Origin: Yuukianura sp. NJ FZ-2021
Taxonomy: Eukaryota
NCBI GenBank assembly: GCA_046563655.1
Contig: CM102285.1
Location: forward strand, 13,392,001 to 13,456,000
Length of the DNA: 64,000 nucleotides
Reading direction: 5' to 3'
Below the pieces are notes generated by a model. It ran no database searches, was not told where the DNA came from, and was given only the letters and a program-made list of their open reading frames with translations. Shown in pieces: positions 7,701 through 61,957 of the stretch (positions are counted from its first letter, which is position 1; each line of letters starts with the position of its first letter). Made by a program: the position numbers and the translations under genes.

Positions 7701-10700
7701 AAATTATGCTGATTTCCTCTGAACTAAAATTTTGAAAAGTGGGTTTCAAATTTTTTATGTTCTAGATTTTTTTGAGTCAAAGGTTACATACGTTCACGAA
7801 TTCCTTAGCAGGGTAGTGTTTTCGGTTAAGTTTTCTCTTTGGACTAAGATGAAGGTGGGGCGTTGGATTTCATTGAATCCTTTTCTTTTATTGCTTCTCT
7901 GGAGAGTCGTGTGGAAAGTGACGGAGCGTGAAATGAGGAAATGTCCATTGTCTTCCATCTGACAGGTTAATCTCTCCCTCTTCAGTCTTTCCTAGGAATG
8001 GCAGAGGTCACAGTGTAAAATAACCTTTGGATTAAACATTCTACAAAGTTAGTTTCACATTTCTGGACCTTAGACGACCGGAGTTCTAAGAAAAAGCCCA
8101 GAGAAAGTTGTTTCCGGAGAAAGTTCGGCTGGAGTCGGGATGAGAGCGAGTGAAAGTGAATAGGAGGCGGTGGCCACGAGATTAATGGGAGGAGATCATT
8201 AGGCTGAAGAAGAAGTATTGACAGGAGGATCCCCTGCCTTGTGCACTTCTTGTGCTAAATTGAATTAAATCCAAAGTAGGGAACAGAGATTTACTCTAAT
8301 GGTGTTGGAGGACTTTGGGTCGTTAAGTCACCACTAGGCTCCCTTGACTTTGTCCACTTCCAAAACAACCACTAATCCAATCGTATTAAAAGAAGACTTT
8401 GGACGAGACTCGTCCCTCGAGAGGTCACAGGTCATTATTAGCTCCAAACCACTTTCACGCCTCGACGCTTCGCTTAATGTCGCTGTAACACAAGACGAAA
8501 ACTCTCATTAGATCTGTAACAAGACGCTTGTCCAGTCCTACATTATTGAAAAATCCTGTGAAAAAAAAAGTTTTTGTTTCCTGAATCTTTCAAAACTTGA
8601 GCTCGAATTCGAAAAATTACTACTACAAGTTAAATTCTTAGAAATTAAAATTTCGACTTTTAGATTTCAAGATTTCATTTGTTCTTTCATTTCATTCCTG
8701 CATTTTCTCTTTTCTGCTGCTAAAGTAAAGCGTTCTTTCACTATAAATCTCAAAGACCTGCAATGGTATTGGTAACTGGTAGCATAGAAGTTGGATGTTT
8801 ATTCACTTTTCCTACAATTTTACAAACGGCGACTATGTTCAAAACTATGTTGAAGTAATTGGAGTCGACTTAATTCCTGTGTAGCTAAACTGCTTACAAT
8901 GTTGTTTGAATATCCATTTCATCGTTTCCAGTTAGGTTAACGCCTTGGAAGTGGAAACTGACTCTTTCATGAAGGTATTTAAAATGCAGAGAAGATTCCT
9001 CCTTACTTTGTATGCAGAAGGTTTGTTGTTGCTCTTAATTTGTCTTGGTCCACCTTTAATTATTCTATTGTTCACTCTAACAAATTGTTAAGTTCAAAAC
9101 ATTCTTAGAAGTAAGATGAACTACACCCTTCATTTGCTCTTTAAGCTTGTAATTTGTAATTTCTTGATCTTCTTCATTCCACAAGATCATGTTGGTGGGA
9201 AGAGAAAAAGTAGCTGTAGCTGTGTAGCACAGTAGCTGAAGCAGAGGAAGATGATTCTGTTTACTAATTAGTTTGGAAAAAATCTTTGTCCATACGTGTT
9301 TGGCCTACGAGATGGGTTAAATGATGGAATGTTTTCCAGACATAACCTTTAAGGTTAACCTTTTTTCTCGGATGTTAGTGTCAAATGAAGATGAATGCAA
9401 GGGAATTAGTATGTGTTAATCTTTAACCATTGTTCAGAGAGATGAACAAAGGAATAAGAAATGCCTGTACGAAGTCAACAATTGATTGATTAAACAAGTT
9501 TCACGCTTCTCCCATGTCAGAAAGTCTTCCTTAGGAAAAAGCCTATGAGTAATTAAGTGGATCTTCACACCTTAGGTCATTCCTCCCTTGCAGTGTCATT
9601 TAAGTCAGAGTCTAATAATTAATTCCAAATGTTCCTCTGTTACTGGCAGGTTTAATGACACCTCGAGGTGTTAAGAGCCTCTTTGTAGTGCTAACGTGTT
9701 TTGGTTGTGGGTTTGCCACTTTTTTGCAACCTTGCTGAGATGCGCAACTCTTAAGTGCAAGTCCAACCCGCCTTTTCCTGTTAAGATTGCGTGAGGAACT
9801 GAAAAGGATGAGCTTGAGAAGTGGAGTAATTAGAAGCGAATGCGCAGTAATTAACGAACTACTCAGCAGGTCCTTCAGGAGGGAGGCTAAAGACATAAGG
9901 AAGAAGTGGGATTGGTCCGATTCAGGATCCAATGGGAGTTAACCTTTTTTGTGTGCTGGACATTAGGTTTGTGCAAATAAATGAATCTGCTGGTGTGGGT
10001 GTCCAGTGCGGTTCTGGAGGGAGAAAGTCCTACCAGCACTTTCTCCTAGGCGCTAAATGGCTTACACATTAGAATTATTTCTGGCCGAGTCATCTCCGTC
10101 AATACTGTGGATTATGACTAATGCAGTTGTGTCATTAGCTCCACGTGATTTAGCGTCTACATCATTAATTACACAAAATACTGGACCAGTAACATTCAAA
10201 ATTTTGAAGAAATTTCAAAAATAACCTTCAATTTTGGCTACTTTTTGAAAAATGAAGAATTCTATGTTTGTTTGAGTTAGCCCCCGTCTAATAATTCTTG
10301 GAAGTTTAGGTACGACAAAATATTTGTATTTGCAGTTCGGCATTGGGGATTGGGGGCAAGTCATGTAATTTTTTTAAACTTGTGAGTAGGTTACATATAA
10401 TAAGGTTATGAAAAAACGGTAAAATTGCAAAAACAGTAAAAAGTGCATGGTCATATTCGTGTAGAAGATGAGGTTTAGTTGAGGAGATGCTGGATGTTGA
10501 GTAAAATCGATTCGAGGCCATTTGTACTCTACAATGTAAAAGAAGTGTAGAGCATTGCACTTAAGGCAATCCTCCTCCCCTCTTCTTTCTTAATCCAAAA
10601 ATGTTTCATTTTTTGAGAGCTTCTTTCTTACAAAAAGTGTCATAATTTTTTGGAAATTTTTTCTTTTCTTTCTGTCTGCGTTCTCTGAAAAGTGTATTTT

Positions 10701-50494: not shown

Positions 50495-52427
50495 TTGAGG
50501 AATTGGAATTTTAAAAAATTCAGCTGAAATTCAACTTTTGGATATATTTGCCTTGCCGAGGATTCACGCTTACTCTACCGTCTTGAAATGTTGGTCCGCG
50601 TGAAAAATTGACCTGTTCTCCAACTTTTTGACGTGACCAAATTTTTAAAAATTCACTTGTACACTTACTTTTTGAGGATTTGGAATTTTGAAAAATTCAG
50701 CTGAAATTCAACTTTTGGATATATTGGCCTTGCCGAGGATTCACGCGTACTCTACCGTCTTGAAATGTTGGTCCGCGTGAAAAATTGACCTGTTCTCTAA
50801 CTTTTTGACGTGATCAAATTTTTAAAAATTCACTTGTACACTTACTTTTCGAGGATTTGGAATTTTGAAAAATTCAGCTGAAATTCAACTTTTGGATATA
50901 TTGGCCTTGCCGAGGATTCACGCGTACTCTACCGTCTTGAAATGTTGGTCCGCGTGAAAAATTGACCTGTTCTCTAACTTTTTGACGTGACCAAATTTTT
51001 AAAAATTCACTTGTACACTTACTTACTTTTTGAGGATTTGGAATTTTGAAAAATTCAGCTGAAATTCAACTTTTGGATATATTGGCCTTGCCGAGGATTC
51101 ACGCGTACTCTACCGTCTTGAAATGTTGGTCCGCGTGAAAAATTGACCTGTTCTCTAACTTTTTGACGTGATCAAATTTTTAAAAATTCACTTGTACACT
51201 TACTTTTCGAGGATTTGGAATTTTGAAAAATTCAGCTGAAATTCAACTTTTGGATATATTGGCCTTGCCGAGGATTCACGCGTACTCTACCGTCTTGAAA
51301 TGTTGGTCCGCGTGAAAAATTGACCTGTTCTCTAACTTTTTGACGTGACCAAATTTTTAAAAATTCACTTGTACACTTAACACTTACTTTTTGAGGATTT
51401 GGAATTTTGAAAAATTCAGCTGAAATTCAACTTTTGGATATATTGGCCTTGCCGAGGATTCACGCGTACTCTACCGTCTTGAAATGTTGGTCCGCGTGAA
51501 AAATTGACCTGTTCTCTAACTTTTTGACGTGACCAAATTTTTAAAAATTCACTTGTACACTTACTTTTTGAGGATTTGGAATTTTGAAAAATTCAGCTGA
51601 AATTCAACTTTTGGATATATTGGCCTTGCCGAGGATTCACGCGTACTCTACCGTCTTGAAATGTTGGTCCGCGTGAAAAATTGACCTGTTCTCTAACTTT
51701 TTGACGTGACCAAATTTTTAAAAATTCACTTGTACACTTACTTTTTGAGGATTTGGAATTTTGAAAAATTCAGCTGAAATTCAACTTTTGGATATATTGG
51801 CCTTGCCGAGGATTCACGCGTACTCTACCGTCTTGAAATGTTGGTCCGCGTGAAAAATTGACCTGTTCTCTAACTTTTTGACGTGACCAAATTTTTAAAA
51901 ATTCACTTGTACACTTACTTTTTGAGGATTTGGAATTTTGAAAAATTCAGCTGAAATTCAACTTTTGGATATATTGGCCTTGCCGAGGATTCACGCGTAC
52001 TCTACCGTCTTGAAATGTTGGTCCGCGTGAAAAATTGACCTGTTCTCTAACTTTTTGACGTGACCAAATTTTTAAAAATTCACTTGTACACTTACTTTTT
52101 GAGGATTTGGAATTTTGAAAAATTCAGCTGAAATTCAACTTTTGGATATATTTGCCTTGCCGAGGATTCACGCGTACTCTACCGTCTTGAAATGTTGGTC
52201 CGCGTGAAAAATTGACCTGTTCTCTAACTTTTTGACGTGACCAAATTTTTAAAAATTCACTTGTACACTTACTTTTTGAGGATTTGGAATTTTGAAAAAT
52301 TCAGCTGAAATTCAACTTTTGGATATATTGGCCTTGCCGAGGATTCACGCGTACTCTACCGTCTTGAAATGTTGGTCTCGGGAAAAATTGACCTGTTCTC
52401 TAACTTTTTGACGTGACCAAATTTTTT
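50495..52427. repeat. Tandem array of ~11 near-identical 177-bp units
   Basis: CAGCTG anchor at 50521, 50698, 50875, 51056, 51233, 51417, 51594, 51771, 51948, 52125, 52302. Period is 177, with two units of 181 and 184 from small duplications; a degenerate remnant extends to ~52500. Confidence 0.97.
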
Positions 52428-52645: not shown

Positions 52646-53902
52646 TGCAAGAAAAAGACTTGCAGAAAATGTTCGTTTTGATTTTCTGCAAGGAAATTTA
52701 ATTGTGTTTTTAAAAAAAAGCTTGCAGCAAATCGCGTTGAAAAGCAGTCGATCTCCCCTCATAAGTATCACCTCTCAAAATCAAAACTGAACTTTCACTT
52801 TTCAGTAATCTTTATGAACTTTGATTTGGCATTGGCGGGGACAACATCAGCTGGTGAGCATAGTCGATTTTACGTCACGTAGTAGTCGATTCTGGAACTA
52901 GGAAATAGGCAAAGCGTCCTTCAGTGGTCGGCAGGTTCTGATGGTATGAGATGGTAATTCTGTATGTACAAGCAAAAGTAAAATTGTGATTTACTATTGT
53001 CCGTTATATTAATTAGATTAGTTGTATCACGGCTGCTTCTGGAGATTGCATATTAACCTAACCACTTGAACATAAATGTTTTAATACTCTTATATTATAT
53101 GTATTCCTTATTATATATTGCTAAATATTTATTGAGTATAGGTACAATAGTATGTATTTATTATACCTTAATTTATTCTTATAGAATTTATTTACATTTT
53201 TAATATGCTATGTATCCCATATTAGTATTAATAATATTAATAATTAACGATATACTTAAGTAGTAGATTCTTAAAAAACGTTTGGCAGACGTTCTAAAAA
53301 TAGGGGCTTTTTGATATAAGGTATGTTATGTTTGAAAAATCTTGCTCGTATTAGTGCTAATGATCAGGAAGTTCGACGCAAATTTGCCGACAATTGTGTG
53401 TTTTCTTTGTTCCCGCAGGGCTGAAGTGAAGAAGCGTGAGTGGCGTGTTCGCCCACCGGCCTTGTGGACTTTGTGGGAGAAGCTCATTTCTATTTTGCCA
53501 ATTCAATTTTTCGAATCAAGAGGTTTAAGATCGCTTCAGCTTCTGTTTAATCGGTTTTCGGGATCTCAGAATAGAGCTGGAGTTCTATTTTTCAACGAGA
53601 AATATGATACGTCCAGCATACGACTGGTTGGGTGCTTTTCAAATGAGCTGAAGCCGACGGAAGAAGAAGAAACGCACTTTGAGACGGAGACAGGAACCTT
53701 CAGTATATCCGGCGCCGGCGAACAGGTACTGAAACGTTGTTTTTCTCGATTGGAATCGTACCCGGAATTAAGAGGGGCACAGATTAGATTCTCATCAATC
53801 TTTTAGACTCGGCAAGTTTCATTGGATTTACGACTTCTGTGTGTGGTTTTAGATTCCCTTCGGGTTGGATTCTTCGGTGTTAATTTAGTACTTCATAAAG
53901 CG

Positions 53903-56900
53903 ATGTATCTCTACAACATCTCACTTCAGCGAGCTACAGGAATTACCCATGCCATTCATGGCAACTTCAGCGGTTCCAAGCATCAAGAAGTTGTCGTCAG
54001 TCGCGGGAAGTTGTTGGATGTTTTGCGACCAGATCCAAACACCGGGAAAGTCGTCACTCTCCTCAGTATCGAGGTTTTCGGAATCATTAGGTCACTCATG
54101 TCTTTCCGTTTGACTGGAGGAGCAAAAGGTAATTCGAATGTTCCATATTTCCCTAGTAAATTGTGGCAATCAGATTATCCGATGATGATCATATGTAAGG
54201 CTGAGTCGATGAATTTCATTGATTATTTTACGTTTCTGAGGTAGTAGAGTGCAATTTAGCCAAGCGTGCTCAACGTTTTGCGTAGATTCTTTTTTAATGT
54301 AAATTTATCTTCCACAGATTACATCGTGGTTGGATCCGACTCTGGGAGAATTGTCATCCTTGAATACAATGCTACGAAAAACGCCCTCGAGAAAATTCAC
54401 CAAGAAACGTTTGGGAAGAGCGGTTGTCGACGAATTGTTCCTGGACAACACTTGGCTATAGATCCTAAGGGTCGAGCCGTAATGATTAGTAAGTCAACGC
54501 ACCTTTATTTTTCTTTCCTGGAGATTACGTTATGTCCTAATTGAAGTTCCTGTTGTGTGGACATTTGCAGGCGCCGTTGAGAAACAAAAACTTGTGTACA
54601 TTCTGAACAGAGATGCTCAAGCTCGTCTAACGATCTCATCACCTCTGGAAGCTCACAAAAGCAACACTTTTATTTACCACGTTGTTGGAGTTGACGTTGG
54701 TTTCGAAAATCCTATGTTTGCTTGTCTGGAGATGGACTATGAGGTGAGTATCGTTCTAAAACGAGTCGATTTTTTTTTTTGGATATGATGAATTAACAAT
54801 TCTTTTCAACTTACCCTCATCTGAGAACAGCTGATTGTAACTCTTCGGTACAACTGAATCGGCGTTTCATTCCTGAAGCCTGTATTATTGTAAAGCGTTG
54901 AGTAACGTTTTGTTTTCTTTTTTGTTTGTGTTTGTAGGAAGCTGATTCTGATCCCACTGGAGAAGCAGCTCAGAATACGAAGCAGGCTCTAACATTCTAC
55001 GAACTGGATCTTGGATTGAATCATGTGGTGAGGAAGTATAGTGAAGGGTTGGACGAGCATGCCAATTTCCTTATCACTGTTCCAGGTGGAAATGATGGAC
55101 CCAGTGGAGTACTGATCTGTTCTGAAAACTACATCACCTACAAGAACTTGGGAGATCAACCAGACATTCGATGTCCGATTCCTCGGCGGAGGGTAAGTTA
55201 TAAATCTTTTAGTTGCATTTATAACGATTTACGAAACGCATAGCGGTATCTCCTGCACGACGTTTTGTCGTCATGCAGGTCGTAAAATTATGCAATATCA
55301 CTGCAGACAACATCGTTAAGTGTAGAGCACTTCATGTTCTATTCTTTGGTATTATGTTTGCCACAACAGATGTTGTTATGAGCCTGACACTTTTGCCAGG
55401 TTATACCAGACTTTTCTTATATTTGTTATATGCAGAATGATTTGGACGATCCTGAACGTGGGATGATTTTTGTGTGTTCAGCGGCTCACAAGACGAAGTC
55501 CATGTTCTTCTTCCTGGCCCAGACGGAACAAGGGGACATTTTCAAAATCACGCTAGAAGTGGACGATGACATGGTGACTGAAATTCGACTCAAGTACTTT
55601 GACACTGTTCCAGTGGCTTCGTCGATGTGCGTACTCAAGACTGGCTTCTTGTTCATTGCGTCAGAATTTGGGAATCAGTAAGTAGTCGAGTCCAAATTAA
55701 AAAAAATTATAAATATCTAACCTCTATGCTGAATTTTAGTTATCTCTACCAAATTGCACATCTTGGAGATGACGACGATGAACCAGAGTTCAGTTCTGCA
55801 ATGCCTCTGGAAGAAGGTGATACTTTCTTCTTCGCTCCACGAATTCTAAGGAATTTGGTTCTTGTTGACGAAATGGAATCTCTGTCGCCAATAATTTCAT
55901 GCCAAGTCGCTGATTTAGGTAAGAGTCAACTTGCAGTTTTGGGATTTTGTCGATTGCTTTCTCTAATTTTGATCGAATTTCTTTGTGATCTGCAGCCAAT
56001 GAAGATACTCCACAACTGTACATGTTGTGTGGACGAGGACCCAGATCTTCCGTTCGAGTTTTGCGACACGGATTAGAAGTTTCAGAAATGGCAGTATCAG
56101 AGTTACCCGGTAATCCGAATGCAGTGTGGACAGTGAAGAGGAGAGCTGATGGTAAGTTCCATCGGAACTAAAATGTTGGGTTGGGTAGTTTTAAAAATAG
56201 TGATGGTTTTACATGTTAGACTTATGAGTTTTTAAACTCTGATTACGATTTATAGACGCTGAATTTTCGTCTGTTTACTACAGTTGAAGAGTTGATCAAT
56301 GCAATTTGATATGAAACTAATCGTCTATTTACAGATGAGTTTGACTCTTACATCATCGTCTCCTTCGTCAACGCCACACTGGTCTTGTCTATTGGAGAAA
56401 CCGTAGAGGAAGTTACAGATTCCGGTTTTCTGGGAACCACGCCAACTTTATCATGTTCAGCGCTTGGAGAAGATGCTCTAGTCCAAGTGAGTTGTTTTAG
56501 GCGTTAAGTTGTTGTGATTTTGAAAACTCAATATGATGAATTACCCTACTTATGATTTTATGATTTCATAATGGATCGACTGCCTGACTTCGCTTGCAAA
56601 TTTTTACTAACTGTTGGAATTCAATTGAATACTTGATTATGAGCTCCTATTTGTTTACAGATTTATCCCGATGGAATTCGTCACATCCGAGCAGATCGAA
56701 GAGTAAACGAGTGGAAAGCTCCAGGCAAGAGATCAATTTTTAGATGTGCAGTCAACCAGCGCCAAGTTGTAATTGCCCTAACAGGCGGAGAACTTGTGTA
56801 CTTCGAAATGGATCCGGTAAGTCCTCAAAATTCCTAAAAGTAAACCGCGTCCTTCAGAGTTTTTTAGTGATTTTTTTTTGTATGATAGACTGGACAGCTC

Positions 56901-59900
56901 AACGAGTACACCGAGCGTCGAGAGATGCCAGCAGACGTAGTTTGCATGAGCTTAGGTTCCGTTCCTGTTGGTGAACAGCGATGCCGCTTTCTTGCCGTTG
57001 GGTTGGCAGACAGCACTGTTAGAATTATTTCGCTGGATCCATCGGTAAGCTACAACTTTTTCTAACATGAATTTGATCCAAGTGTTTGTCTAACTAACTT
57101 ATCTAACTTTATTGTTTGATTTATGATCTTAGGACTGTTTGTCACCGCTAAGCATGCAAGCCCTTCCAGCACGACCGGAGTCACTTTGCATCGTGGACAT
57201 GGGAGGTGGAGAGGGTGGCGACCAAGGAACGCTGTATCTCAACATTGGTCTTGAAAATGGTGTACTGTTGAGAACTGTTTTGGATCCGGTCACTGGCGAT
57301 TTAGCAGATACTCGCACTCGGTATATTGGTTCACGTCCAGTGAAACTCTTCAGAATCAAAATGCAAGGAGGTGAAGCAGTTTTAGCCATGTCAAGTCGCT
57401 CCTGGTTGAGTTACTACTACCAAAACAGGTAACAAACTTCAACTTAGCGCAACTCATGAATCGTGCATTGCTCTGTAATTTGAAATGATGTGAATTTTTT
57501 GTCCGTGTTTCACCTGAATCCAATGATTACGCTATACAAATCTGATCAAATTGCCAAAAAGTCAATTTACTTTTGATTTTCTTTTTTGGCTAAACATGGC
57601 ATTGACGATTTTGCTTTTACGTTTTCAAGGTTTCACTTGACTCCGCTGTCTTACGAAACATTGGAATATGCCAGTGGATTCTCATCAGAGCAATGCCCTG
57701 AAGGTGTCGTCGCCATTTCAACCAACACTCTCCGAATCTTAGCAATGGAGAAACTGGGAGCAGTTTTCAACCAAATGTCATTTCCACTGGAATATACGCC
57801 AAAGAAGCTTTGCATTCATCCTGGGACGGGAAATCTTATTATTATTGAAACTGACCACAACGCATACACAGAAACAGTGAAGAGGCAACGAAGAATACAA
57901 ATGGCAGAGGTAAATTCACAATTTCCTAGCAATTGTACTACCTTCCGTATGTCAAGTGTGATGAGGGTACTCGCATGCACTGAGGCCCATTACATTTGTC
58001 CGAAATATTATGTGGACAAATGCCCCCGACTGACTTGCCAATTTAATAATTTCAAAATTGTTTTGTAATTTTACAAGTCGTGAATTTTAACTTGAAATAT
58101 TTTTTGTCAACAGGAAATGAAGGAAGCTGCAGGTCCAGACGAACAAGAATTGGCTCAAGAAATGGCTGATGCTTTTCTGAATGAAGACTTGCCGGATGCT
58201 GTGTTTGGAGCTCCGAAGGCTGGTGCAGGAATGTGGGCTTCAATCATACGAATCATGGATCCCATCGAAGGCCGAACATTTTTCTTGCATCGATTTGAAC
58301 AAAACGAAGCCGCAATGAGGTAAGTGGAAAACAGCGTTTGTTTTAAAGTGGAGTGTCAAAGCTATTGCTGCAGTCACTGTCCCGCCGCAGATCACGCGAA
58401 TCGTAGTTTGCAGCATTTTTTGGTGGTGGTGGAGGTGGGGGTATTATTAATGGTAGTAATGGCGGTGCCCATGTAGCCCAGGGCTTTACATCCTGAATGC
58501 GCACTTCCTTACGGAATGAGTCGGAAAAGAATTTGTCGCATAAGCGAAACGTTTTGAGGTAGCAGAATAAGTCGAAGATGAGGTCACAAAATAGCGGGGC
58601 CTGAAGGGATGTTAGAATTGTTGAATTAGAAAATAATTGAATTTAAAGTTAGAATTTAACATTTTTCGAGGCGTAATAACAATTCTTACAAAGGCGAACA
58701 GTCCTATGCTCGCTCCAATCGTGAGAACCAAAAGTAAAAAGTCAAACTTCCTTCCCTCTCCAGTGACTTTGACGATGAACTTGATTCCATAGTGTTTTGT
58801 CAGGGTACGTTTGTTCCCTTCAAAGAAAACAGCACTTCTCCAGTTGAATCCAGGCGCAAGTTCGTTTGAATCTGCAACGTCGACTCGAAGAAACCGATAC
58901 TGCGGGAGACAGTCGTCGATTGTTAGCCCCCAGTCGAAGTCGCAGTTCCAGTTGATGATTATGAGAAAAATTCCACCCTGAAAGCAATTTAGAAATGAAA
59001 GACGAAGTTGTAGTTAGAGCAAAAGCTGAATGGTTTTCCTTACAGTGATTCCAACTTTGTCATAGTCCTCTCCGCTCCACTTGACAATGTCACCGATGAT
59101 GAATATTGGACAGAATGGGTGGTGCAATGGATGGTAACGACAGGACTTTAGGTATTCTAGTGTAAAGTTGCTTAGCAAATTTCGTCTTTTGTAGAGGGGT
59201 TCAGTTTTGTGAAGTACGATATCCGGTTCGCAACTCGGAAATTCGTCGGAGGTTTTGATGAGAACAGTGAAATTTTTAGTAGCGTGGAGAAGAGGGTAGC
59301 TCTTGTTTCTGGAATAGAATAGAATTGTTTTGAACTTTTGTTTCAAAATGCAAAAGAACTTCAAAATTTTGAAGTTTTTTTTTTTTGGTTTTTCCTTAAA
59401 AAGTGGGTGTGGTTCTGCTTACAAAGGAAGAACGTCATCTTCGTTTGGACACCAGGCGGAGACTTGGCACATTCCTGCTTCAATATTGCAGATGCCGGTC
59501 ATAATGCCGTCGGTTGCCTTATCCGGTTTTCCATGCTTGCAGTCGGCATCAGTTGTACAGCTTACGGAATTCTAGAAAAGTCGTTGGTTTAACAAAATTT
59601 TAAGAAAAGAAACTCAATTCTTGCGGAAGTGCTGACCGATAAGCATGTTCCGCGGACTTGATTAGCTGTGATGACCAGGTTCGTCATGACAATAAACCCG
59701 GCTTCACTTGTGACGATCAGATCTTGCGTATCCCAAACGCGTCTGTATTGTTCAGCGTTTCTGATGGCCAACTCCGTATCGGTCTGATTCTCCGTGGACA
59801 AAACCCCTTTGACTTTGGTTGTAAAAGTTGACATGACGGGACATCGTTTCTGATAGGTTTTCCGCAGATCCAGTTGGTAGCTGAATCACAATATTTCGGT

Positions 59901-61957
59901 AGCGTTACTGCTTTGAATGTGAACAATTTTTGAAGTTGAACGACTTACCTCTTTAGGATGGCAAACCAAACGATAGCTACGAGCGTCGAGTAGGTGATGG
60001 CTAAGCATTTGCTTTTGATTTGTACGACGCGGGTAGTTGAGTAAATTGTGAACAACTCTCGAAACCACTCCATCATGGCTGTATTAGTTTCGCTTTAGGT
60101 GGACTTAACAATGTATTAATTCCCTGGATTCCGTAGGGTTGCGTTTGCTGGCGGAGGAAATGTGTTGTTTGAAATTCGGATAATAACTGTGTCAGTGTGA
60201 CAGAAATTCGGAGCGGAGTCTACTTCCGTCGAATTAGATCTGCTAATTGACTAACATGATGAAAGCCTCTAAATATTGCGTTGACTCTGGCTCGTGTTAA
60301 AATATTGGGATTAATAATGCCTCTGAAACATGCAATATAAGATGAAACCGGAGGCACAGTCAGCGGAGCGTCATGTTTGTTTTGGAATTCATTGTGTTGT
60401 ATGAACCGGAGATGAGTATCGATCCCTAAATGGCTTTCGTAGAGCAGGAAATTAAGTTAATTGTTCGGAAAGAAGTCTAATTTGTCTTTTTCCTCTTTTA
60501 TTCCAGCCTCGCGTATTGCAAATTTGCCTCCCAAGGAGAGTTCCAGCAATTCGTACTAATTGGAGTAGCGAAGGATTTGCATCTCTCCCCCAGATCCGTT
60601 GGACAGTGTTACATTTACACGTTTCGGTGAGTTATGAACGCCTACGGTGGATAACTGATTGTTGATTAATTTAATGCAATTAGAGAGATTGAATTCTTGG
60701 AAGTAATTTCGTTTTGATTGTTTTTGTGTTTTCAGATTGAATCAAGACTGTAATGCGATGGAATTCCTTCATAGAACGGTTGTAGATGAAGTTCCGTATA
60801 CGATGTGTCCGTTCAAGGGCAAACTGCTTGTAGGTCTTGGAAAAACCCTGCGTTTGTATGATTTTGGAAAGAAAAAACTCCTCAAGAAAAGCGAAAATAA
60901 GGTAATTTTTTTGAGAAATACAAAAAATTCAGAAGCATCTTTGATTTAGTGATGAAATTTAACACTCTGATAGAAATCTTTCGATTTCGCTTGTGAAGAC
61001 TACTGTGTTCTGCAGTACTGAAATTTTCAAAGCTTCAAGAGAATATTTGAATGTATTTCGGCAAGTTAGTAATTTTTTTTTATGTTTTTAGCACTTTCCA
61101 AACATGATCGTCCATATCACAGCTCATGGAAATCGGGTTTACGTTTCTGACGTGCAAGAAAGTGTACATTACGTTCGCTACAAAAGACAGGATAATCAGC
61201 TGATCCTGTTTGCCGATGAAACAAATCCGCGCTGGGTAACGACTTCTTGTGTCTTGGATACGGACACGGTAGCAATCGCTGATAAGTTTGGAAACATTGG
61301 CGTAGTTCGACTACCATCTAACACGTCGGATGACATTGACGAAGATCCGTCCGGAACGAAAGCGCTGTGGGATCGTGGTGTCCTCAGCGGAGCTTCTAAC
61401 AAATTGGACGTTCTTTGCAATTTTCATGTGGGAGAAACTGTACTTTCACTTCAGGTAATTTTTATTAAAAAAGAGAATTTTTATAAATTAGATATAGTAT
61501 TCATGATGAATTCTAACGATTGATTGATTTTTTTTAGAAATCGACACTGATTCCAGGAGGAAACGAGTCGCTGGTTTACACAACAATTTCCGGTTCCGTT
61601 GGAATTTTGGTTCCGTTCACTTCAAACGAAGACCATGACTTCTTTCTTCACTTGGAAATGCACATGAGAAGTGAAAATCCTCCGCTCTGTGGCCGTGACC
61701 ATCTCTCATTCCGCTCTTACTACTTTCCTGTTCGGGTAAGCAAAAACTTTTGATTATTTTGATGCTTCTTGCTTTTCGCTGGTTATTGAGCTGGTTTGTT
61801 TTCTGAATTGTCACAGAACGTGATTGATGGTGATCTGTGCGAGCAGTTTAACTCAATGGATCCAAGTAAGCAGCGTAGTATTAGCGAAGATCTCGATAGG
61901 AATCCAAGTGAAGTTTCTAAGAAGTTAGAAGACATCCGTACTCGTTTTGCGTTTTAG
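53903..61957 (+). CDS. SF3B3: Splicing factor 3B subunit 3 (SAP130/Rse1), 18 coding exons, 1211 aa
   Basis: Exons 53903-54128, 54318-54488, 54571-54743, 54938-55192, 55436-55677, 55740-55918, 55996-56151, 56335-56486, 56661-56816, 56889-57044, 57133-57428, 57630-57909, 58114-58319, 60507-60626, 60736-60901, 61092-61454, 61538-61735, 61817-61957 (3636 nt, in phase). Starts [24 protein letters not shown], contains [17 protein letters not shown], ends [12 protein letters not shown]. Confidence 0.98.
54174..54245 (+). ncRNA. Candidate box C/D snoRNA in SF3B3 intron 1, target not identified
   Basis: Box C ATGATGA 54182-54188, D' CTGA 54201-54204, D CTGA 54236-54239, wobble-rich terminal stem ATTATC/GGTAGT; D box 78 nt upstream of the acceptor. 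Confidence 0.55.
54782..54860 (+). ncRNA. Box C/D snoRNA in SF3B3 intron 3, guide to the 28S rRNA 5' domain
   Basis: Box C ATGATGA 54785-54791, D' CTGA 54821-54824, D CTGA 54854-54857, GAT/ATC stem. TTCTTTTCAACTT-a-CCCTCA (54800-54819) is complementary, with one mismatch, to conserved 28S UGAGGGAAAGUUGAAAAGAA. Confidence 0.8.
55238..55368 (+). ncRNA. Box H/ACA snoRNA in SF3B3 intron 4, SNORA8/snR31-like
   Basis: Hairpin 1 (GCATAG/TTATGC, CCTGCA/TGCAGG), H box ATATCA 55295-55300, hairpin 2 (GCAGACA/TGTTTGC, TAGAGCA/TGTTCTA), ACA 55363-55365. Pockets pair with 18S ACGA-UC-AGAUACCG and ACCA-UA-AACGAUG, the two sites I recall for human SNORA8. Confidence 0.85.
56194..56267 (+). ncRNA. Box C/D snoRNA in SF3B3 intron 7, SNORD104/snR58-like target
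   Basis: Variant box C GTGATGG 56200-56206, D' ATGA 56224-56227, D CTGA 56259-56262, AAAAT/ATTTT stem. Guide ACATGTTAGACT (56211-56222) pairs with 28S AGUCUAACAUGU; D'+5 points to the C of GAGUC. Confidence 0.78.
56528..56590 (+). ncRNA. Candidate box C/D snoRNA in SF3B3 intron 8, target not identified
   Basis: Box C ATGATGA 56533-56539, internal ATGA boxes, D CTGA 56584-56587, 73 nt upstream of the acceptor. No clear terminal stem or guide. Confidence 0.45.
57475..57554 (+). ncRNA. Box C/D snoRNA in SF3B3 intron 11, guide to 28S UGAAACACGGAC
   Basis: Variant box C ATGATGT 57485-57491, D' CTGA 57514-57517, C' ATGATTA 57523-57529, D CTGA 57542-57545, terminal stem AATTTGA/TCAAATT. 12-nt guide GTCCGTGTTTCA at 57501-57512. 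Confidence 0.85.
57953..58037 (+). ncRNA. Box C/D snoRNA in SF3B3 intron 12, possible double guide (18S and 28S)
   Basis: Box C GTGATGA 57958-57964, D' CTGA 57980-57983, D CTGA 58030-58033, CAAG/CTTG stem. D guide AATGCCCCCG pairs with 18S CGGGGGCAUU; D' guide ACTCGCATGCA can pair with 28S UGURUGCGAGU allowing wobble. Confidence 0.8.
58343..60076 (-). CDS. P2X purinoceptor (ATP-gated cation channel family), 6 exons, 443 aa, nested in SF3B3 intron 13
   Basis: Exons 60076-59949, 59880-59637, 59571-59423, 59308-59044, 58977-58690, 58600-58343 (1332 nt, GT-AG, in phase, no stops). Motifs [56 protein letters not shown] and LFCD; all ten ectodomain Cys; two TM segments. Confidence 0.95.
60943..61025 (+). 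ncRNA. Box C/D snoRNA in SF3B3 intron 15, SNORD96-like target (5.8S Gm75 equivalent)
   Basis: Box C GTGATGA 60949-60955, D CTGA 61018-61021, 70 nt upstream of the acceptor. Guide TGTGTTCTGCAGT (61004-61016) pairs with 5.8S ACUGCAGGACACA (one G-U); D+5 points to the G of UGCAGG. Confidence 0.8.

Follow-up and report, generated by a model that had tools for sequence, protein, structure and literature searches.

The introns of the SF3B3 gene of Yuukianura sp. NJ FZ-2021 fall into distinct size classes, which raises the question of what the longer ones contain. The window, that is, the whole stretch of DNA analysed here, comprises 64,000 nucleotides of contig CM102285.1 and includes the complete gene. 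The initial annotation had proposed that SF3B3 is a multi-snoRNA host carrying about eight rRNA guides, and the boxes, their position, guide pairing and conservation bear this out. We conclude, with a probability of roughly 0.9, that 8 introns each harbor one conserved snoRNA gene, the product of which is likely excised from the spliced intron, with a predicted role in directing 2'-O-methylation or pseudouridylation of rRNA, and that this would be an old association between host gene and cargo in arthropods.

SF3B3 and its introns

53903..61957, plus strand: SF3B3 host gene, 18 coding exons and 17 GT-AG introns, from ATG to stop

The splice model yields an uninterrupted frame of 1211 aa, the product of which is 85% identical to SF3B3 of Folsomia candida and approximately 80% identical to further named proteins from arthropods and vertebrates. 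In a FastTree phylogeny, the sequence set of which omitted 9 full-length proteins without a name and every locus protein shorter than 190 aa, the window protein grouped with Folsomia and loci L025, L026, L028, and L029 (6 rows) with a support of 92, which is below the threshold that the tool treats as strong. This placement makes a springtail the probable source of the gene.

Introns 1 to 9 are 189, 82, 194, 243, 62, 77, 183, 174, and 72 nt long and introns 10 to 17 are 88, 201, 204, 2187, 109, 190, 83, and 81 nt long. Thus, 8 introns measure 62–109 nt and another 8 measure 174–243 nt, reproducing both classes of the bimodal distribution noticed initially, with intron 13 standing apart at 2187 nt. 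All 8 introns of the 174–243-nt class (1, 3, 4, 7, 8, 11, 12, and 15) contain one snoRNA gene each, 7 of the box C/D and 1 of the H/ACA type.

The long intron 13 holds an intron-containing P2X receptor gene on the minus strand (58340-60076), nested antisense in SF3B3, with Pfam PF00864 matched in 3 of the 4 open reading frames tested. This nesting looks lineage-restricted, judging from the counterparts of the same intron, which are 73 nt long in L029 and 118 nt in L028. Upstream of SF3B3, a 156-aa open frame on the plus strand (53336-53806), ending 96 nt before the start codon and without a Pfam match, may be the final exon of the preceding gene, and a tandem pair of near-identical 177-nt units lies at 51947-52300.

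Eight snoRNA genes identified by boxes, position, and guides

54182..54239, plus strand: snoRNA A, box C/D, intron 1; C at 54182, D' (ATGA) at 54209, C' at approximately 54220, D at 54236
54785..54857, plus strand: snoRNA B, box C/D, intron 3; D' at 54821; predicted target 28S G370
55238..55368, plus strand: snoRNA C, box H/ACA, intron 4; H box at 55295-55300, ACA 67-70 nt before the acceptor
56200..56262, plus strand: snoRNA D, box C/D, intron 7; D' (ATGA) at 56224; 14-bp guide, predicted target 28S C868
56533..56587, plus strand: snoRNA E, box C/D, intron 8; 10-bp D guide, predicted target 28S U1809
57485..57545, plus strand: snoRNA F, box C/D, intron 11; D' at 57514; predicted target 28S A851
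57958..58033, plus strand: snoRNA G, box C/D, intron 12; 10-bp D guide, predicted target 18S G883
60949..61021, plus strand: snoRNA H, box C/D, intron 15; 13-bp D guide, predicted target 5.8S G74

A C box combined with a CTGA D box ending 60–95 nt before the acceptor occurs in 7 of the 8 mid-sized introns and in none of the 8 short ones. The criterion applied to C/D genes (C and CTGA D boxes 50–130 nt apart, D approximately 65–90 nt before the acceptor) recovers all 7, and in each of them the D box ends 70–84 nt upstream of the acceptor. Together with the ACA of intron 4, this agrees with the range of 67–84 nt claimed at the outset, as does the presence of C/D or H/ACA boxes before the acceptor in every mid-sized intron and the absence of a complete set from the short ones. 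Lone boxes in intron 14 (D only) and intron 16 (C only) were rejected as snoRNAs, and so was a ninth candidate in intron 13 (C at 60256, D at 60323), its best guide scoring 8.5 and its D box lying 180 nt from the acceptor.

Position-filtered C/D box pairs appeared in 0.3–6.7% of dinucleotide shuffles (300 per intron), and a box pair with a guide no worse than the observed one in 0 of 300 shuffles for 6 introns and in 3 of 300 for intron 8. Guides of the C/D snoRNAs score 10–17.5 against the rRNA of the same genome (the best-conserved guide of snoRNA A being only 9 bp long), and terminal stems reach −3.1 to −4.7 kcal/mol in A, F, and G and are near zero or absent in B, D, E, and H. Without the position filter, the box-plus-guide rule returned 18 rows over the 128 kb of both strands, 8 of which correspond to the 7 snoRNAs and 10 to background. 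The whole window contains no Rfam match at the gathering threshold, in line with the initial suggestion that protein-centred annotation would miss such cargo. Relaxed searches gave SNORD126 at intron 11 (E 1.5e-5; 39.3 bits versus a cut-off of 55), SNORD96 at intron 15 (E 0.28; 25.4 versus 43), and snoR64 at intron 7 (E 4), with no SNORA8 among the matches listed; SNORD104 was matched in L081 only (20.8 versus 40). Both the background rows and the lack of a match at the Rfam cut-off would be expected if boxes and guides had arisen by chance in AT-rich introns or were defunct remnants there, and because of them position and conservation are needed as further support for the snoRNA reading.

Predicted rRNA targets

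Targets were predicted on the 18S, 5.8S, and 28S rRNAs of L019, one of the genome's own intact rDNA copies. The modified base pairs with the fifth nucleotide before D or D' in the case of C/D snoRNAs and is the pocket uridine in the case of H/ACA snoRNAs. By extension from vertebrate and fly biology, each intron would be spliced out and its lariat debranched, exonucleases would trim the intron down to the protein-protected core as the snoRNP assembles, and the rRNA nucleotide opposite the fifth base, or the pocket uridine, would then be modified. The initial annotation had recognized rRNA complementarity in 6 introns; the complementarity stands, and the count rises to candidates for all 8.

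snoRNA A is predicted to target 28S U3903 (9 bp) and 28S G3820 (11 bp with one G-U pair); the register of the D guide is off by one in L029. An alternative register with D' = CTGA at 54201 was rejected because it gives a best rRNA score of 7.5 and turns an invariant stretch into spacer, and a SNORD11-type role on 18S G473 involves a mismatch at position 6 (score 8.5) and is not preferred. In snoRNA B, the guide at 54803-54819 pairs with 28S 367-383 at −20.9 kcal/mol with a single A-A mismatch at 54813 (position 8), so that the D' guide is paired at all but one of positions 1–18; the 28S base opposite the mismatch is an A in all 10 rDNA copies checked. No convincing target was found for the D guide of snoRNA B. 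snoRNA G has a possible second guide at D' for 28S U878, which is not kept in L029. At 9–11 bp, A, E, and G have short guides. Within the genome, B, E, and G occur at one site each, and the short pattern of A at 5 sites versus 7 for the control. The start of snoRNA G (57961-57969), which L029 retains, shares 9 nt of complementarity with the snoRNA B guide, probably by chance.

The single H/ACA member, snoRNA C, has 18S U1005 and U1030 as predicted pocket targets. Intron 4 folds into 2 hairpins (z −3.96, with none of 200 shuffles as good). Across the 7 aligned sequences of the family, the pockets are invariant and the stems variable, the consensus stems showing double changes at 9 of 11 pairs; the first hairpin is present in 7/7 and both hairpins with open pockets in 6/7, and the pocket lies 14–17 nt from the H or ACA box in 7/7. 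The L029 copy matches Rfam snoF1_F2 (E 8e-4). We take snoRNA C to be of the SNORA8/snR31 type, which presumably serves both pocket sites, the two being 25 nt apart. U1005 sits 25 nt past A980, and fly Psi1086 has the same spacing past Me18S-A1061, A980 being in our assumption the equivalent of fly A1061.

Conservation and movement of the cargo

We surveyed 77 metagenome SF3B3 loci, many of which reach only the first exons. At least one of the 8 guide motifs lies inside an SF3B3 intron in 13 of the 77, and all 8 window snoRNAs were found again in SF3B3 introns of relatives, often in another intron. snoRNA A occupies intron 1 in L025, L027, and L029, B intron 3 of L025, and H intron 15 in both L028 and L029. 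snoRNA C is in the same intron in L028, L029, and L080 and in other introns in L040/L042 and L038/L064, the guide of E is in intron 3 of L028 and L029, and G is present in 2 copies in L029 (introns 9 and 12). The motif of F recurs in L028, L029, L040/L042 (2 copies), and L080, in a different intron every time, and that of D in introns of L028, L029, and the copepod-like loci L070, L071, L074, and L081. In the tree, L040 is placed with an ant, L038 with a termite, L070, L074, and L081 with a copepod, and L080 with a barnacle (support 96–100). Searched with strict motifs, the mostly partial loci grouping with Owenia (L030, L043, L066, L076, L082, L086, and L092) have no cargo motifs in their introns.

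The initial annotation had named the alignment of orthologous introns as one check, and its outcome is favorable: in 13 of the 14 comparisons between species, snoRNA cores scored above every one of 300 shuffles, whereas flanks did not and are unalignable across species. The exception is snoRNA E against L029 (26 versus 30 for shuffles), and 2 further comparisons are marginal. A divergent haplotype from another sample carries 27 substitutions over 53922-55704, 16 of them exonic, and one 1-nt insertion within the spacer of snoRNA B. None of the substitutions falls in the 262 nt of cores, whereas the other intron sequence (473 nt) has 11 (Fisher p 0.01, with linked sites), a comparison that covers A, B, and C and rests on the first 40 of 539 differences. 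The reading of boxes and guides as chance motifs or remnants is hardly credible next to boxes and guides conserved between unalignable flanks, cores free of substitutions, and the shuffle controls; conservation appears already largely to have refuted it. We instead read these elements as probable snoRNA genes because the boxes, the position before the acceptor, the complementarity to rRNA of the same genome, the conservation, and the recurrence in shifted introns of relatives all point that way.

Intron size tracks cargo, with introns of approximately 60–120 nt lacking and introns of at least 170 nt containing a snoRNA. In L029, cargo is present in 8 of 8 introns of at least 170 nt and in 0 of 8 shorter ones, and in L028, in 5 of 5 introns of at least 200 nt and in 0 of 11 shorter ones. 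Intron 11 measures 201 nt in the window versus 78 nt in L029, and intron 9 measures 72 nt versus 200 nt. The cargo thus changes introns within one host, and intron length follows it.

The survey also yielded several separate observations. In P0001 and P0002, from 2 other species, the gene calls continue across intron 1 and retain a short peptide that corresponds only to translated snoRNA A; database proteins of this kind are artefacts. The copepod-like SF3B3 loci L069, L070, and L071 have up to 4 introns with copies of one C/D snoRNA, the guide of which pairs with the 5' end of 18S rRNA, with U8 as the predicted target. Intron 2 of SF3B3 in L080 (L080:1522-1709) contains a C/D snoRNA that belongs to neither the window nor the fly cargo, with a guide scoring 14.5 for 28S G2766, which we take to be a SNORD12/snR190-type site.

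Comparison with fly and vertebrate snoRNAs

Drosophila Sf3b3 (CG13900) is the same host with 9 snoRNAs versus 8, and 4 targets are common to both. Its cargo consists of Me28S-A771, Me28S-C788a/b, Me5.8S-G74, Me28S-G3113a/b, Psi18S-1086, Psi18S-110, and Psi28S-3308. Matched by target position rather than by sequence alignment, F corresponds to A771, D to C788, H to 5.8S G74, and C to Psi18S-1086. The window set has no guide for fly G3113, Psi18S-110, or Psi28S-3308, has A, B, E, and G in addition, and contains no duplicates, unlike the fly gene with its a/b pairs. In the human rRNAs, C868 corresponds to Cm1340/SNORD104, A851 to Am1323/SNORD126, and 5.8S G74 to Gm75/SNORD96; A851 and C868 are 17 nt apart, like human Am1323/Cm1340 and fly A771/C788. 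snoRNAs D, F, H, and C are functional counterparts of SNORD104, SNORD126, SNORD96, and SNORA8, respectively, outside Rfam membership. The vertebrate hosts of SNORD126, SNORD104, SNORD96, and SNORA8 are not known to include SF3B3. Vertebrate SF3B3 is nonetheless a host too, of SNORD111/111B, with another target (human Gm3944) and fewer snoRNAs.

Several of these points are in print. The SnoBIRD paper, in which SF3B3 is a case study, describes fly Sf3b3 with 6 C/D and 3 H/ACA snoRNAs (PMC12309372), and a further study places 9 snoRNAs in CG13900, including Psi18S-1086, Psi28S-3308, and 18S-110 (PMC9074282). A third source puts the 9 at chr3L 827,076-833,209 on the strand of Sf3b3, gives the older names of the C/D cargo (A771, 5.8S-G74, C788a/b, and G3113a/b, plus 3 H/ACA snoRNAs), and reports their expression in S2 cells at 26 to 47,740 TPM (PMC13228274). 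Human Am1323 (SNORD126) and Cm1340 (SNORD104) are listed in Table 1 of PMC11550049, and chicken SF3B3 is described with SNORD111B-type snoRNAs in introns 3 and 6 and with intragenic translocation (PMC2653536). Thus, the host, the multiplicity, and the movement between introns are already in print, and 4 of the 8 targets are common to the fly; the window locus extends a published case and overturns nothing. For SF3B3 snoRNAs of springtails, we found no publication within the literature searched, to which subscription journals, bioRxiv supplements, and figures, any of which may hold such annotation, did not belong; SF3B3 is not named in PMC13736004.

The coupling of U2 snRNP supply to guides that was proposed initially amounts to shared transcription, which ties the guides to SF3B3. 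Since the levels of the 9 fly snoRNAs span 3 orders of magnitude, a tight coupling between SF3B3 and guide supply is not to be assumed. The fly A771 site is given as 'not identified' by RibOxi-seq2 in S2 cells, so a conserved guide need not equal a methylated site.

The description of the cargo as lineage-specific does not hold for C, D, F, and H, which share fly targets and 3 of which also occur in ant-, termite-, or crustacean-like SF3B3; it fits only A, B, E, and G, which were seen only in springtail-like loci. As judged from target position, SF3B3 has long carried C, D, F, and H: 4 fly Sf3b3 guides would already be present in SF3B3 of springtail-like animals. No counterpart was found for any site predicted for A, B, E, or G in the human table consulted (in human numbering) or in the fly names and tables consulted, these being the 2 species compared. 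The annotation gain amounts to 8 snoRNA genes missed by Rfam and 5 predicted methylation sites without a match, namely, 28S G370, U1809, U3903, and G3820 and 18S G883.

The lack of a match in these sources is one reason to consider that A, B, E, and G may be real, expressed snoRNAs that leave the predicted rRNA sites unmodified, serving as chaperones of pre-rRNA folding or acting on other targets. Their guides are short or mismatched, and neither the second conserved element of B nor the conserved extension of G has a good rRNA partner. Yet every guide represents the part conserved across species and immediately precedes D or D' in the canonical register, and U2 and U6 offer no target scoring above 7.5. 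We regard such a role as possible, if clearly the less probable one, and retain rRNA modification as the predicted function of all 8 snoRNAs.

Possible pairing of snoRNA B with a splice donor of its host

55189..55199, plus strand: splice donor of exon 4/intron 4, all 11 nt of which are complementary to the snoRNA B guide

The single mismatch of snoRNA B to 28S rRNA creates this complementarity with the host transcript. The resulting duplex has 11 contiguous Watson–Crick pairs and, at −18.3 kcal/mol, is the strongest among the 17 donors of the gene (next −14.0; 28S target −20.9). When 51 single changes of the rRNA target were compared, none matched a host donor over as great a length as the observed one (11 nt, versus 8 for the next and 5 for the unchanged sequence). 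L025 retains the mismatch base, and its donor pairs over 10 nt. In folding of naked RNA, pairing between B and the next donor reaches 0.93 and 0.99 in the 2 species, the top 2 of 31 combinations of a snoRNA with the next donor, with only one of the other 29 above 0.8 (at 0.86).

One could accordingly imagine that snoRNA B doubles as a cis-acting splicing switch: before the snoRNP proteins bind, the guide would pair with the donor approximately 370 nt downstream and compete with U1, resulting either in retention of intron 4 (with an in-frame stop and decay) or in skipping of the 255-nt in-frame exon 4, and tying SF3B3 output to the supply of box C/D proteins. Precedents for cis-acting snoRNAs are described for SNORD86/NOP56 and SNORD2/EIF4A2 (PMC11028025, PMC10324135). 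What they have in common with the present case is that an intronic C/D snoRNA may pair with the transcript of its host, a likeness that concerns snoRNA B only; they were shown experimentally and act through a branch point or a conformational switch, whereas the pairing of B is a prediction and involves a splice donor. The strength of the duplex, the identity and retention of the mismatch base, the folding, and the precedents all favor the switch. However, the complementarity was noticed post hoc among 15 guides, 3 other guides score 10.5–12 within the host transcript with G-U pairs, and the rRNA target is donor-like by nature. Furthermore, the donors of L080 (10/11) and L028 (9/11) match although no B was found in their mapped introns, the pattern covers 2 species only, and equilibrium folding over 450 nt leaves out proteins and co-transcriptional splicing. 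The donor 11-mer occurs at 40 genome sites, the guide itself among them, which we count in favor of the switch, versus 53 for the control, so that the target is not in excess genome-wide, which counts against it. Overall, we doubt the dual use and consider it improbable that one base change turned the guide into a U1-like element through which SF3B3 would sense box C/D supply, with unproductive splicing if snoRNP assembly lags. If B did regulate splicing of its host, it would link spliceosome supply to ribosome biogenesis. The rRNA guide function thus remains the preferred reading for snoRNA B.

Variation among the rDNA copies

The rDNA copies of the genome differ in their 28S genes. On 3 contigs, 13 of the 15 sampled copies that hold the site (L006, L007, L008-L012, L015-L017, and L020-L022) are without the same 156 nt of the conserved core, corresponding to approximately 2565-2720 of the intact copy and with a short repeat at its ends; only L019 (C4) and L023 (C5) are intact. 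The missing segment presumably comprises helices 68–71 and the target region of R1/R2. The explanation would be either a spread of defective arrays or a collapse of the functional array in the assembly. The rDNA spacer (L006:1-400 and 8030-8830) contains many short repeats that have a common 11-nt core and are oriented oppositely on the 2 sides of the unit.
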